A stretch of DNA of 64,000 nt, from assembly GCA_035221665.1 (NCBI GenBank), contig CM069138.1, positions 15,562,001 to 15,626,000 on the forward strand, in the 5' to 3' direction. A model generated the notes under the pieces. It worked only from the letters and a program-made list of their open reading frames with translations. It searched no databases and was not told the DNA's origin. Positions 17,033-25,062 of the stretch are shown piece by piece (positions within the stretch are counted from its first letter, which is position 1; each line of letters opens with the position of its first letter). The translations under genes and the position numbers were made by a program. This DNA comes from Okamejei kenojei. Lineage: Eukaryota.

Positions 17033-17426
17033 ATCCATTCTATCCATTCAGATATCTTTCTTGGATCCCATGCGATCTAACCTACCAGAGCAGCCTACCA
17101 TGCAGAACCTTGTTGATATTAATATGTAAAGCTAAGTGGGACCCGTTGGGTCCCAATATCACATGGGAGGGCTGGTCCCCCAATGCAATATTCCACCTCT
17201 CCACCAATTCCAATATTGGTGGCCAGTGGGCGGAGGGGTGGAGGTTCTGGAGAGCTAGTATGGGTGCTGTGGGCTGAAGGGACTGGTTTCCAGGGGGCTA
17301 GTATGGACATTGTGGGCCGAATGGATTATTGGGCTGGCAGCTCAGTCACTCAAGCCTGTTGTGCTGGCAGCTCACTCACTCATGGCTGGTGGGCTGGCAG
17401 TTGACTCACGGCTATTCCTTGAAATT

Positions 17427-17594
17427 CCATTTCAAGCAGGGTGCAAGGACACCAAATTCAAGTGCAGTTTCTTACCACTTCAAGCAGGGTGCAAGGTCAC
17501 CAAATTCAAGTGCAGTTTCATACCACTTCAAGCAGGGTGCAAGGCCACCAAATTCAAGTGCAGTTTCATACCATTTCACGCAGGGTGCAAGGTC
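17427..17594. repeat. 48-bp tandem repeat, ~3.5 copies
   Basis: CCAYTTCAAGCAGGGTGCAAGG... units start at 17427, 17475, 17523, 17571. Confidence 0.95.
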
Positions 17595-17908
17595 AAAAAG
17601 ACAGTGAGTCGTGAACTCTCCCTCCTCCATCTTGCAGAGACTGACCCATTCCCACATTTCTAGGTTTCATATTCCCTCCCCCCTCCCACTTCATAACGTG
17701 ATTCACAGGAGAGAGAATCTAAACATTTTTTAAACACTAATAATTCTTTTATTTTTCATCGATGGGAAAAATCCTCGGCACCTGATTAGCAGAGGAGGAT
17801 TCTGAGTAAGATGTCCAAAAATAACAGCCGTACGTGGTAGCGTTTTTCCTAAAATCAATATAAAGCACAAACAGGAAGAGGTCAAGATTAGACTTTTAAT
17901 TATATAGA

Positions 17909-18321
17909 AGGCAAGGCAACTATAATTAGGCAAGGCAACTTTAATTAGGCAAGGCAACTATAATTAGGCAAGGCAACTTTAATTAGGCAACACAGCTTTA
18001 GCATTTCTAAACCAAAGGCAACACAGCTTTAGCATTTCTAAACCAAAGGCAACACAGCTTTAGCATTTCTAAACCAAAGGCAACACAGCTTTAGCATTTC
18101 CAAACCAAAGGCAATACAGCTTCAGCATTTCCAAACCAAAGGCAACACAGCTTCAACATTTCCAAACGAAAGCCAACACAGCTTCAGCATTTCCAAACGA
18201 AAGCCAACACAGCTTCAGCATTTCCAAACCAAATGCAACACAGCTTTAGCATTTCCAAACCAAAGGCAACACAGCTTAAGCATTTCCAAACCAAAGGCAA
18301 CACAGCTTTAGCATTTCCAAA
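17909..18321. repeat. Compound minisatellite: 4x19 bp then ~11x31 bp
   Basis: AGGCAAGGCAACTWTAATT x4 (17909-17984), then AGGCAACACAGCTTYAGCATTTCYAAACCAA x~11. Confidence 0.95.
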
Positions 18322-18535
18322 CTATATTTTCAAACCACATTAAAGGCACTGAAAGGTCAGTAAAACCACTCACAGTTTAGTTGACATGTGTTCAGTGTTA
18401 TTCACAGCTCAGACTGAGAGACTCTCGCTCCCCCATCTTGCAGAGACTGACACACTTTTTATCTCTCACGCACCGTGAGAAGTTATGGGGAGAAGGCAGG
18501 AGAATGGGGTTAAGTGGAGAGATAGACCAGCCATT

Positions 18536-19305: not shown

Positions 19306-19407
19306 GAATGGCGGGGTGATGGGCCAAATGGCCTAAATACACTCCTATTCCTTATGATCCTCACTCACACACACTCACTCTCTATCTCTCTCACTCATAC
19401 TCTCTCA

Positions 19408-19549
19408 CTTCTTCTTTTTCTTTCGTGTGGCGTGCACAACCTAAAGTTGTTGGACAACTTGTTCTATTTGCTCTTCTGTTTGTGCATGTCGAGTTGATTG
19501 CATTAGTCAAAACAGGGCGGACCACGTGAAGGTTGCAATCTTCCACCCC
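19408..19549 (-). mobile_element. ~140-bp non-autonomous Vingi/Ingi-type short retroelement (ribozyme head plus GAA-rich tail)
   Basis: Minus-strand 3' end CGCCACACGAAAGAAAAAGAAGAAG resembles the Vingi end at ~57400 (AAACGCAAGAAGAAGAAG); 5' end is an HDV-like fold. Confidence 0.7.
19496..19549 (-). ncRNA. Minimal HDV-like self-cleaving ribozyme (predicted)
   Basis: GGGGUGG-AA-GAUUGCA-ACC-UUCACGU-GGU-CCGCCCU-GUUUUGA-CUAA-UGCAAUC: P1 7 bp with G1-U wobble, P2 7 bp perfect, P3 3 bp, L3 UUCACGU, J4/2 CUAA with putative catalytic C. Confidence 0.75.
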
Positions 19550-19742
19550 ACACGCTAACTCACACTCACACACACTCTGTCACACACTGTCTCTCTCTCA
19601 CTCATTCTCTCTCACTCTCACACACTCGCTCTCGCACTGCACTGTCTCACTCACACTTTCACTCACGCAGGTGTGTATACCAAAGATACTAGAGGAGTGG
19701 TGTATACATTGTATACAATCTCTCTCTCACACACACACACAC
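19550..19742. repeat. (CA/CT)-rich low-complexity tract upstream of promoter
   Basis: Interspersed CACA/CTCT runs; tract also extends to 19360-19407. Confidence 0.85.
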
Positions 19743-20134
19743 GCAGGGCGGAGCACGCCGATCCGTGCCCCGCCCACTCCGCCCGGCGCCTGACGTCAGC
19801 GCGCAGGTGTGGGTGCGGGGGGAGGGGCAGCGGCAGCGGCAGCGGGCGGGCCTGATGGCGGCGGCGAGTTCCGTGTTTACACCCGAGAGGAGGACGCCGA
19901 GCAGAGCGCGGTGTCACTGAGCGAGAGGGCAACGTCGACAGAAGCGGGGCGGGGGGTGGGAGGCAGACAGACGGAGAGAAGAAGAGGAGGAAAGGAAGAG
20001 TGAGAGAGAGAGAGAGATGCATTTGGCGGCTTGAGAACGGCTTCCTCCCAGAATTAAACCAAGGAAGGCGCAAGGGGCGGCAGGCAGGCGGCGAAGACGA
20101 CGGGCGCTTGTGTGTTGGTCGCCCGCGGAACGGG
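19743..20134 (+). promoter_or_regulatory. CpG-island promoter / 5' UTR of RALGAPA2
   Basis: CpG-dense; GC boxes (GGGCGG 19746, CCCCGCCC ~19768), full CRE TGACGTCA 19791-19798, YY1-like ATGGCGGC 19855; immediately upstream of the start codon; TSS unknown. Confidence 0.8.
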
Positions 20135-20240
20135 ATGTTTTCCAGAAAGCCTCATGGAGACGTCAAGAAATCTACACAGAAAGTTCTGGACCCAAAGAAG
20201 GACGTGCTGACCCGCCTCAAGCACCTGAGAGCTCTGCTAG
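20135..20240 (+). CDS. RALGAPA2: Ral GTPase-activating protein catalytic subunit alpha-2, first coding exon (106 nt, phase-1 intron follows)
   Basis: [35 protein letters not shown] matches the remembered human RALGAPA2 N-terminus ([36 protein letters not shown]); consensus donor AG|GTGAGT at 20240/20241; DPKKDV and RALL favour A2 over A1. Confidence 0.93.
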
Positions 20241-20336
20241 GTGAGTGAGTGGGGCACACCTGCAGTTGCCATGGATGCCCCTGGGTGGGACTGATAACCA
20301 TGGTGATTTCACTGCAGCCTTCACTCCATGCTTTGC

Positions 20337-21137: not shown

Positions 21138-21509
21138 TTACTGAAACTCACTTGAAACTTACCGTGTTTTGAAACATGAATTTGTTGTCTGATTGATTTA
21201 TGCAGTTGTGAAGCTCACTACTGCAATGGAAAACTAAACAAGTTTTTGAATATTTTGTGCAGTTCGTTTTGGTTTTCTTACAATATGTAGGAAATTAATT
21301 GAGAAAGAAACTGCTGATGCTCGAATCTTGGGCAAAACATAAAGTGCTGGAGGAACTCAGCGGGTCAGGCAGCATCTGGGGAGGAAATAGACAGTCTATG
21401 TTTTTGGTCTGAGGAGGTTCCTGACCGAAAATATCATCTATCCATTCCCTCCCCAGATGCTGCCTGACCCAGAGTTCTTCCAACACTTTGTGTTTGTGGG
21501 AGATTCATG

Positions 21510-21930: not shown

Positions 21931-22889
21931 AGGATCTAAGTAAGTTTATTGGCCAAGTATTCACATACAAGGAATTTGCCTTGGTGCTCCGCCCAGGTAA
22001 CAACATGACATACTGTGACAGTTATGAATGACTCAGAAAACACTAAATATCAATAACATTAAAACATTAATGATAAAACACCATTGATCAAGCATGTGAA
22101 CCAACAAAATACCAGATCAAAGGGAGGCCACAGATTTTTGGCTGTTGAGCAACTACTCGTGGATAAAAACTGTTTTGTCATAGAGTATATATTCGATTAT
22201 TGAACACAATGCATAGCCTTGAGACTTGAAATAAACTTTGTTAGTTTTCGGTCTTAACTATCTGATGAAGTCTGTTTTCTACATCGTTCCCTCGTTCTAC
22301 ATTCTAACCATGAAGAATCTGCAGTCAGCTTGAAATTGCACAAACCATGCTCAGAAAGTGTGCTATTTTCTTTGTTAGGTGCCCTAAACAAAGTTGGCGT
22401 GTGAGTAGGCCACTCAGCCAAAGAAGTCTGCTTTGCTATTTAATGATCGTGGCTGATCTGATTGCTGCCTACCTATGGTATTCCTTTCTACCTATGGTGA
22501 TGTTTCCTCACCTCGCTTATCAAACATTTACCTACATTTGCCTTGAACAGATTAAAAAGCTTTGTTTGAACACTCAGCCCATTATGAAAACCTTCTACCT
22601 TATCATCTTGAATTGGAGGCCACTTATTTGTAAACAGTTTTCTCTCCTTCTTGATTCTTGCTCATGAAAAATCATCCTCTCTACAACAATCTTCTCAACA
22701 CCTTTGAAGTTCAGTAGAACCCTCTTCAACTCGATATCCAACCTTTTTTCCATAAACCAAATTTCTTATTGCAGATATCAGTCTCCGAAACCTTCTCTGA
22801 TTTATTTCCAATGCATTAATGTCTGTAAAAGGACACCAGAACTGCTCACAGTTCTTGCCATTCTCCTAACTAACTCAAGTATAACCTTG

Positions 22890-23624
22890 GGTACACAAAA
22901 AGCTGGAGAAACTCAGCGGGTGCAGCAGCATCTAAGGAGCGAAGGTGATAGGCGACGTTTCGGGTCGAGACCCTTATTCAGACTGGTCAGGGATCAGGGA
23001 AACAAGAGATATAGACGGTGATGTGGAGAGATAAGGAACAATGAATGAAAGATATGCAAAAAAGTATCGATGATAAAGGGAACAAGCCATTGTAAGCTGT
23101 TTGTGGTGTGAAAATGAGAAGCTGGTGCGACTGGGGTGGGGGAGGGAGATAGAGATAGAGGGAATGCCAGGGCCCGAGGGCTGAGGGAGAGGTGGGAAGG
23201 GGAGGAGACAGCAAGGATTAACAGAATTGAGAAAATTCAATGTTCAAGCCCAAAGGATGCAGACTCCCCAAGCGGATTATGAGGTGCTGTTCCTCCAGCT
23301 TGCGGTGTTGCTCACTCTGGCCGTGGAGGAGGCCCAGGACCGAGAGGTCGGATGCGGAATGGGAGGGGGAGTTGAAGTGCTGAGCCACCGGGAGGTCGGG
23401 TTGGTTATTGCGGTCCGAGCGGAGGTGTTCGGCGAAGCAATCGCCAAGCCTCCACTTGGTCTCACCGATCTCTCGTTTCCCTGATCCCTGACCAGTCTGA
23501 AGAAGGGTCTCGACCCGAAACGTCGCCTATCTCCTTCGCTCCTTAGATGCTGCTGCACCCGCTGAGTTTCTCCAGCTTTTTGTGTACCCTCGATTCTCCA
23601 GCATCTGCAGTTCTTTCTTTAACA
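22890..23624 (-). mobile_element. Penelope-like element: GIY-YIG C-terminus plus 3' UTR flanked by inverted terminal repeats, 15-bp TSD
   Basis: Minus strand 23220-23470 encodes IGETKWRLGDCFAEHLRS..VAQHFNSPSH..GLNIEF; ~120-bp inverted arms 22890-23010 / 23470-23588; direct repeat TCAAGTATAACCTTG at 22875-22889 and 23625-23639. Confidence 0.85.
23497..23524 (+). ncRNA. Minimal type-I hammerhead ribozyme core in Penelope terminal repeat (predicted)
   Basis: CUGAAGA-A-GGGUC(UC)GACCC-GAAA-CG-UC; palindromic ACGU stem III; stem I only ~2 bp. Confidence 0.55.
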
Positions 23625-23899: not shown

Positions 23900-24002
23900 T
23901 TTTCTGAAGTCTGAAGAAGGGTCTCGACCCGAAAAGTCGCCTATCTCCTTCGCTCCTTAGATGCTGCTGCACCCGCTGAGTTTCTCCAGCTTTTTGTGTA
24001 AC
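23900..24002 (+). mobile_element. Solo Penelope terminal repeat with 10-bp TSD
   Basis: Near-identical to 23495-23586; CAGCCATATC at 23890-23899 and 24003-24012. Confidence 0.75.
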
Positions 24003-25062
24003 CAGCCATATCATTTGGTGCCTTTGACCAAATCATTTCTAAATTGTGAATATTTGAGGCCCTGACACTGATCTCTTGGAACATTGCTCGTTACATTCTG
24101 CCAATTGAGAAAAGACTCGTATACCTACTCGCTGTTTCTCGAGCGTGTAGCCTGCCAATTATTAAGAAAGCCATATCATTTAAGAAAATTGGCCTTACCA
24201 CTGATCTATTTCTGCACTAACCTTTATTGCCCAACTTATCATTTGGTTTATTTCTGAGAAAAGAAATCTATGAAGTACATCTATGGATAAGTTCTAGGAG
24301 CTGAATAGGACATTCGGCCCAGCAGGCACCTGCCATTCAGCTTGAATGGATACTATCAACCCTCAAACCCCAAAAAACCTTTTGACATAAACCCTAACTA
24401 ATCAAGAATCTCTGTCAATCCTCTCTCTTGCCTCAATTTTTAATAATTTTATTTAATCACAAATACTTTGATTTTATCCACAAAAAAAGTCAACTCGCTG
24501 ATAATGGGCAAATGACTGATTTTCATCTGAATGAAGTAAAGGGATCTAATGAATGATGAATTACTATGCCATTTCAGCTTGAATGCTGCTACTTGACCTC
24601 TCTGCAAAATGGTCAGGAGTGAGACAAACATATACATAGAATTAAAAATCGAGTTTAAGATTATTCAGACTCATACACTGGACTTCTGGCAGCACCTCTG
24701 CAGTGGTCAAATGCTTACAATCAAAGATTACAAAGCATGCAGCAAAAGAATATTTGTTTTAATGAAGCATATTAATTTTCATAGACTTGGGCAAGAATGT
24801 GGCAGGAAGGTAATGAAATTCTTGTGAGTTTAGTACAATTTCCTGCAGCATGAACTAGAACTAACAAGAAAACATGATAGTAGCTATACTGTTGTGTAAT
24901 GAGCCTGATTTCAGCCGGCTGTCCGTGTTTTGTGAGCAATGGCCAAATAATGATCATTGTATAATTTAATCTGGCCTTGAACAGAAGAAATGGGGAAACT
25001 CAAAGATACCAATGTTGAACGAAATGGGCAATCACTAGATTAATGGAAGCAGAGGAAAATAA

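Follow-up and report, generated by a model that had tools for sequence, protein, structure and literature searches.

A probable minimal HDV-like ribozyme at the 5′ end of a short, Vingi-derived retroelement in the skate Okamejei kenojei

The window analysed here, a 64,000-nt stretch of the genome of the skate Okamejei kenojei, contains on its minus strand a short repeat whose first 54 nucleotides (19496..19549) read like a self-cleaving RNA, which raises the question of what this sequence is and whether it sets the 5′ end of the element that follows it. Judging from sequence, we consider it probable that these 54 bases form the 5′ part of a non-autonomous element of 142 nt, an internal deletion of a Vingi-like LINE, and that they are likely an HDV-type ribozyme without P4 which would cut before G19549.

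The candidate ribozyme, which was assigned from the reading of the letters, a descriptor match, the register of the Rfam alignments and core matches in phages, can form the nested double pseudoknot of the HDV type in the order P1-P2-P3-L3-P3-P1-P1.1-(P4)-J4/2-P2, as seen in the letters and with the descriptor. P1 (19549-19543 with 19520-19514) consists of seven pairs, including the wobbles G1·U36 and U5·G32, and is connected by J1/2 (19542-19541) to P2 (19540-19534 with 19502-19496), which contains seven Watson-Crick pairs. P3 (19533-19531 with 19523-19521) has three pairs and closes the 7-nt loop L3 (19530-19524), in which U20 and G25 are located. P1.1 is formed by the one pair C22-G37 (19528 and 19513) beside a U21·U38 mismatch. 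A linker of 5 nt (19511-19507) stands in P4's place and is followed by the 4-nt J4/2, whose first base, at 19506, is the predicted catalytic C44 and aligns to J4/2 of the Rfam HDV model. The predicted cut site lies directly 5′ of G19549, which is G1. The key bases of the HDV class, namely J4/2 as C-N-R-A, U20 and G25 in L3, and the G1·U wobble, are all present, and 80 copies of the family retained C44 in 75/80, U20 in 79/80, G25 in 75/80 and G1 in 69/80 cases. The original prediction had given this minus-strand reading from 19549 to 19496 with every letter exact, and its P1, P2, P3, L3 and single-pair P1.1 are all formable; its placing of a putative catalytic C at 19506, opening J4/2, was borne out by the copies. 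Its description of P4 as reduced to a stub did not hold: P4 is wholly absent and replaced by the 5-nt linker, i.e., the layout is the minimal (theta-type) one. Absence of P4 is the defining property of minimal HDV-like ribozymes (PMC10879173), and the 54-mer shares it through its linker, but it does not match the two-pair P1.1 of the catalogued theta ribozymes, having one pair and U·U. By its predicted layout, the 54-mer is a minimal HDV-like ribozyme and not a theta ribozyme as catalogued. Linker base 19509 was C in 68/80 copies, which gives a UUCG linker, and the window copy differs there, so that its linker carries a CpG-type change. The double-pseudoknot fold is almost certainly real.

The structural descriptor matched the real window once and had no match in two sets of 300 and 150 locally shuffled windows, a significance that is somewhat overstated because the descriptor was written after the motif had been seen. 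It failed to parse 14 of 23 hand-picked loci, many of them decayed, including both copies of the parent LINE that were tried. With a 171-nt stretch, Rfam gave HDV_ribozyme at 21.2 bits (gathering score 50, E 0.3) and HDV-F-prausnitzii at 16.2 bits (gathering score 44), both below threshold and both in the expected register; the HDV-type models of Rfam include P4, and they do not define the HDV-like class. The CPEB3 model did not match the 171-nt stretch, and the Rfam scan of 4 kb returned no ribozyme match. Nested folding gave a stability that was not unusual (z −0.18), and the program is blind to pseudoknots and hence uninformative for this fold.

The whole short retroelement occupies 142 nt (19408..19549, minus strand) and ends in (GAA)n. 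The section 19472..19549, which comprises the ribozyme and about 24 nt of 5′ UTR, is homologous to the 5′ end of the parent LINE (BLAST of positions 1-73 to the full-length copy L300, and alignment), and the section 19408..19457, including the (GAA)n tail, is homologous to its 3′ end. A 7-bp hairpin in the 3′ half (19443..19460, minus strand), found in both the MFE and the centroid structures, spans the deletion junction, and in most copies an 8-nt complement (19488-19481 with 19438-19431) joins the 5′-derived and the 3′-derived halves. The complement may be a deletion guide or a recognition aid. The element is flanked by a decayed target-site duplication (TSD), with the upstream copy at 19550..19560, in the flank predicted to pair with J4/2, and the downstream copy at 19399..19409 (both minus strand); the upstream copy is identical to 19409-19399 at 8/11 positions, and the duplication sits in a GA/GT-rich tract.

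In the 2.76-Gb genome, a 29-nt pattern from the 5′ end had 7,485 exact matches and a 23-nt pattern from the 3′ end had 7,085, with 0 matches for each reversed control. The family contains at least 7,485 copies, and about 22,000 by a rough estimate from the overlap among the places listed (33 common to sets of 98 and 100). As a sample we used 90 of 100 listed 3′-pattern places (10 omitted), all within the initial 22.5 Mb of a single contig; these copies were selected by their 3′ end alone and blind to the ribozyme. The 5′ end was reached by 80/90 of them, and all pairs and key bases were intact in 36/90. A TSD of 7-15 nt was present in 62/80 copies reaching the 5′ end, and the 5′ end deduced from it was exactly G1 in 22/62, within 1 nt of it in 43/62 and between −4 and +3 in 60/62. 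The base at −1 among the 80 copies was T in 39, A in 16, C in 14 and G in 11. These data agree with the earlier claim that G1 of the ribozyme is the 5′ end of the element: the family boundary lies at G1, the TSDs place it at or near G1, and the family does not run beyond 19549 (80 of 90 copies, 62 TSDs). The window copy departs from the commonest letter at 19509, 19487, 19471 and 19439. Both ends are homologous to one LINE and the ORF is deleted, which is the composition of a bipartite non-autonomous LINE (SIDE), and the TSDs together with the simple-repeat (GAA)n tail are the insertion marks of this type. A simple pattern search found no polymerase III A or B box in the element, whose LINE-derived head is unlike those of tRNA-, 7SL- or 5S-headed SINEs. 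Sequencing runs of six organisms contained at least half of the sampled element words, so the family is common to several species. Four copies of the first 100 listed (L144, L163, L164, L165) contained a precise inversion between the P2 arms, which suggests template switching on the 7-bp inverted repeat.

A search with the endonuclease family and a follow-up protein search revealed several LINE families of about 3 kb with a single APE-RT ORF and (GAA)n tails, one of which has both ends in common with the 142-nt element; the element is therefore an internally deleted derivative of this LINE. The full-length parent copy L300 (3,043 nt, with a TSD) opens at this G1 with a version of the 54-mer that has decayed a little. 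Its matches to the short element cover positions 1-73 and about 98-137, and further copies carry the 3′ match to position 93. Pfam found only endonuclease (PF03372) and RT (PF00078) in the parent and no RNase H, and PF00075 (RNase H) was carried by 0/120 of the parent homologues listed, which were mostly about 1,000 aa long, the named ones being largely arthropod proteins of about 40-54% identity. A single APE-RT ORF without RNase H is also the architecture of RTE. The parent has the architecture by which Vingi is defined, one compact ORF that encodes APE and RT but lacks RNase H (PMC13708176), although this architecture alone is not sufficient to separate it from RTE. A 14-row RT tree joined the parent to its sister families in a single clade (100/99), with an RNase-H-bearing LINE as neighbour and separate from the CR1/L2-like rows; the tree was rooted at its midpoint, had a long neighbour branch and consisted of rows without a named Vingi, Ingi or RTE reference. 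The original prediction had guessed the Ingi clade, which is probably right for the Ingi/Vingi branch but not for L1Tc/ingi proper, the parent having a single ORF and no RNase H, so that it is Vingi-like.

Reading frames were broken in the parent copies examined (L285, L298 and L300), and the longer parent matches were 81-90% identical to L285 among the 40 of 2,316 candidates scored. No driver of the youngest wave was found among these parent copies and the 40 candidates scored, and an intact driver copy may exist among the remaining ones. Some parent copies (L285/L297, L299 and L306) had an inverted 5′ end, as twin priming would give. Three other candidates for the parent were rejected. A pattern for the ribozyme with foreign sequence behind it had 374 matches, and the 30 + 12 examined were indel variants, interrupted copies or inversions; the top endonuclease matches belonged to an RNase-H-bearing LINE, whose 3′ end differs although it too has a (GAA)n tail; and a family of about 430 nt with a related core differed at both ends. 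The genome also contains many copies of a two-ORF LINE with a (GAA)n tail (L212, C2:28223000-28232000), which we take to be Nimb/I-like and which has an unbroken APE-RT-RNase H frame of 1,276 aa.

How the exact 5′ end would be made can be modelled on the roles shown for the R2 and L1Tc ribozymes (PMC6765202; PMC3185411; PMC4035085). Host polymerase II would read through a copy from an outside promoter, the nested pseudoknot would form co-transcriptionally, and C44 would act as the general acid, with Mg2+, in a cut 5′ of G1, leaving an uncapped RNA with its exact 5′ end at G1. The compact fold would then shield the released RNA against 5′ exonucleases, and the LINE protein, acting in trans, would bind the LINE-derived 3′ end and insert another copy through target-primed reverse transcription. 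The short element would owe its ribozyme to the LINE, whose lineage would already have lost P4 when the deletion took place.

Capped RNAs leave an extra G. G at −1 was not enriched (11/80 copies), which fits an uncapped RNA. The strongest competing reading is that the 5′ end is set by an internal polymerase II promoter in the first 54 bases, comparable to Pr77, with the ribozyme serving as a back-up or for read-through only. CGTG lies at +24 to +27 here and at +25 to +28 in Pr77, where it is the DPE needed for promoter activity (PMC4748587), and L1Tc uses both promoter and ribozyme (PMC4035085). However, the CGTG bases double as L3 and P3 of the ribozyme and are CGCG in one sister family, and a promoter accounts neither for the covariation of the helices nor for the invariant catalytic C; with the missing extra G at −1, these observations make the promoter an unlikely maker of the 5′ end.

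The predicted cleavage at G1 gains from the same core in phages. Viral contigs were scanned with a pattern that fixed the core of the element only and left P1, P2 and tRNA free, and P1 and P2 were then scored with at most one mismatch per helix in the best of several registers. Among the 40 core matches, 34 form P1 and P2, 27 begin no more than 1 nt from the 3′ end of a tRNA, and 26 combine the two properties; removal of duplicates leaves 36 distinct sequences, for which these counts become 32, 26 (tRNA-adjacent) and 25. The window copy's exact linker occurred in six matches. In a control with a base other than C at the catalytic position, 0/25 matches form both helices in register and 4/25 were tRNA-adjacent, two of which also matched the C pattern. 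Since matches to the core alone form P1 and P2 and adjoin tRNA 3′ ends, and none of the control forms both helices in register, the P4-less single-pair build is under selection in phages at a known cleavage site. The tRNA-adjacent minimal HDV-like motifs of phages observed here (L445-L483, L430) have a single-pair P1.1 with U·U. Test strings from them had no match in the searchable supplements of the theta study (PMC10879173), in whose delimited tables undelimited strings cannot match. Files 5 and 6 of these supplements contain rows with the same segment lengths, some with the same P3, L3, J4/2 or 5-nt linker, and P1.1 always has two pairs in the first part of file 6 and in 22 rows with 5-nt linkers (PMC10879173). 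We do not favour capture of the ribozyme from a phage, given that it is present in the parent LINE and, in longer versions, in the sister LINEs.

Four tRNA-associated theta ribozymes assayed in the theta study cleave (PMC10879173), and CPEB3 is functional with one G-C pair and U-U in P1.1 (PMC4836649). By likeness to the phage motifs, the theta ribozymes and CPEB3, a single-pair P1.1 and an absent P4 are likely compatible with cleavage when combined, and typical intact copies very probably cleave. The fold could also be real but slow or dead after the loss of P4, and be kept as a protective 5′ structure or as a binding site of the LINE protein. A stable HDV-like fold improves the template function of R2, apparently by limiting 5′ degradation (PMC11331408), the single-pair P1.1 without P4 differs from the two-pair build of the catalogued theta ribozymes, and a weak G37-C44/U38-A43 hairpin, as read in the sequence, could compete with the fold. 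Against this stand the same core exactly at the 3′ ends of phage tRNAs, where only cleavage makes sense, and the exact end at G1, which would still need a maker, so that a slow or dead fold is quite improbable.

Variation within the family spares the structure in its common forms, which among the 80 copies were A or G in J1/2, U5·G32 or U5-A32, and U, G or A as the second base of J4/2. Helix changes within the family were one-sided only, and covariation was weak. The variant U29C, which breaks P3, had 312 exact matches against 7,485 and occurred on many backgrounds; an inherited sub-lineage was rejected on this ground, and U29C looks recurrent instead. The sister families in the genome open with the same fold at their 5′ ends, with different P1 and P2 sequences, a first P3 pair of A-U or G-C, and a P1.1 of C-G, U-A or G-C. 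Their P4 region is 16-93 nt long, and only in the present lineage is it 5 nt. A second short family (about 210 nt; 1,286 candidates, L104-L132) has an HDV-like fold with a real P4 hairpin and is derived from another Vingi-like LINE with the same 5′ fold (L282, L287, L292). In a third short family (about 430 nt; 2,827 candidates, L509-L538, L061, L063 and L064), which is presumably RTE-like, the fold opens at a C1-G pair, P1.1 is swapped to G-C and the P4 region is 90 nt. At least five further Vingi-like LINE families (L229-L295) were observed, each with its own 5′ HDV-like fold. The covariation expected of a real fold was therefore found in part: pairing is kept in lineage-level changes, and P1, P2, P3 and P1.1 covary across the sister families and phage motifs, but within the family the changes are one-sided. 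That the pairing is a neutral passenger from the LINE, or chance, without a role in the spread of the short element is scarcely credible, for although covariation within the family is weak and its young age would allow passive retention of the fold, the common changes between the parent and the youngest short copies fall within the 54-mer at J1/2 and a wobble site, with more sites changed in the rest (small numbers), the deletion spared the entire ribozyme, and two other short families in the genome kept theirs.

A RALGAPA2-like gene has its start codon 586 nt from the window copy, which lies upstream of it in the opposite orientation. The first coding exon of this gene (20135..20239, plus strand; E 3e-15 to RalGAP alpha-2) points away from the element, and a CpG island (19720..20250; GC 0.64, CpG observed/expected 0.93), from which read-through RNA might come, begins about 170 nt away. 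Because the island is adjacent and the element is oriented away from it, divergent transcription would cross the element in sense, and the read-through RNA of the window copy would plausibly come from there. A scan for bacterial promoters returned nothing, and bacterial models are irrelevant to vertebrate DNA. In a folding model without pseudoknots, the pairing of C44 with the upstream flank reaches 0.91-0.99 in the window copy, whereas 23 other copies have a median of 0.38; U-1 of the window copy is also able to pair with G37. By this model, the window copy's own upstream flank may inhibit its cleavage; inhibition of the flank type has been reported for L1Tc and CPEB3 (PMC3185411). We give efficient cleavage of the window copy in place slightly better than an even chance. 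Other repeats were also observed in this neighbourhood. Minisatellites with periods of 19, 31 and 48 nt are located upstream of the RALGAPA2-like gene at 17900-18390 and 17424-17595, and another short repeat is present in several copies (21337-21470, 22889-23010, 23468-23589 and 23908-24003), two of them in inverted orientation. A 48-bp inverted repeat at 21362-21470 yields spurious miRNA matches.

Among known systems, the minimal HDV-like (theta) ribozymes of gut phages (PMC10879173; bioRxiv 10.1101/2023.06.13.544163) are like the 54-mer in the absent P4 and in segment lengths, some having the same P3, L3, J4/2 and a 5-6 nt linker. They differ in that the skate 54-mer heads a vertebrate retroelement, whereas theta ribozymes belong to phages and often stand directly after a tRNA, and in that the theta rows have two pairs in P1.1 and the 54-mer one pair and U·U. 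L1TcRz/Pr77 of L1Tc, NARTc, ingi, RIME and SIDER (PMC3185411, PMC4035085) is likewise an HDV-like ribozyme that sits at +1 both in a LINE of the Ingi branch and in its internally deleted derivatives, with a single-pair P1.1 and CGTG near +25; in contrast to the present case, its 77 nt include a P4 helix, L1Tc has an RNase H, and the hosts are trypanosomes, not animals. Two short strings of the Pr77 core that the original prediction gave for comparison had no match in the text of PMC3185411. The CPEB3 ribozyme (PMC4836649) is similar in the G-C and U-U of P1.1, in U20 and G25 of L3 and in a 4-nt J4/2 with the catalytic C, but it has a P4 hairpin and is a single intronic locus outside any mobile element. 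The R2 SIDEs and the bipartite non-autonomous LINEs of RTE, Ingi, Vingi and R2 (PMC5786205, PMC6765202) resemble the 142-nt element in that nothing but the two LINE termini is retained, and the 5′ ribozyme of SIDEs is thought to release the RNA from a co-transcript (PMC5786205, PMC6765202). In its proposed mechanism, the 142-nt element would work like L1TcRz in NARTc and RIME and like the R2 SIDEs.

That LINEs and their deleted derivatives can carry HDV-like ribozymes is already known (PMC5786205, PMC6765202). New, as far as our literature search reaches, are the P4-less build in a eukaryote, its placement on a Vingi-like LINE and the subclass with a single-pair P1.1; any of them may have been described before, and the family may have an entry in a repeat database. 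Minimal HDV-like ribozymes have so far been reported from metagenomes and gut phages, and the theta study reports no theta match in the eukaryote genomes screened there (human, mouse and protists) (PMC10879173). No minimal theta-type ribozyme of a vertebrate was found in our literature search. We lean, by a small degree, towards the full picture, in which a minimal (theta-type) HDV ribozyme is active in a eukaryote and represents a subclass missed by the published descriptors (no P4, single-pair P1.1 with U·U). In this picture, it spread to about 20,000 copies in a vertebrate by means of a 142-nt Vingi-derived element, its core is used independently by phages for trimming of tRNA 3′ ends, and thousands of its intact copies would cut the host transcripts that cross them in sense.

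If this is true, minimal HDV-like ribozymes extend to animals, and Vingi joins the LINE clades that bear ribozymes. The phage scan exposed a single-pair-P1.1 class of tRNA-linked ribozyme motifs that was not found in the accessible published theta tables. The family, with its thousands of copies, together with the sister families that have P4 and the phage motifs, is a natural mutational scan through which the minimal structure can be tested. The Vingi clade is now used in gene-insertion tools (PMC13708176), and a ribozyme-headed unit of 142 nt that is mobilised by a Vingi protein would show the minimal cis sequences for that LINE clade. About 40% of the sampled copies (36/90) retain all pairs, so those lying in sense orientation within introns or UTRs could cleave the RNAs of the host.
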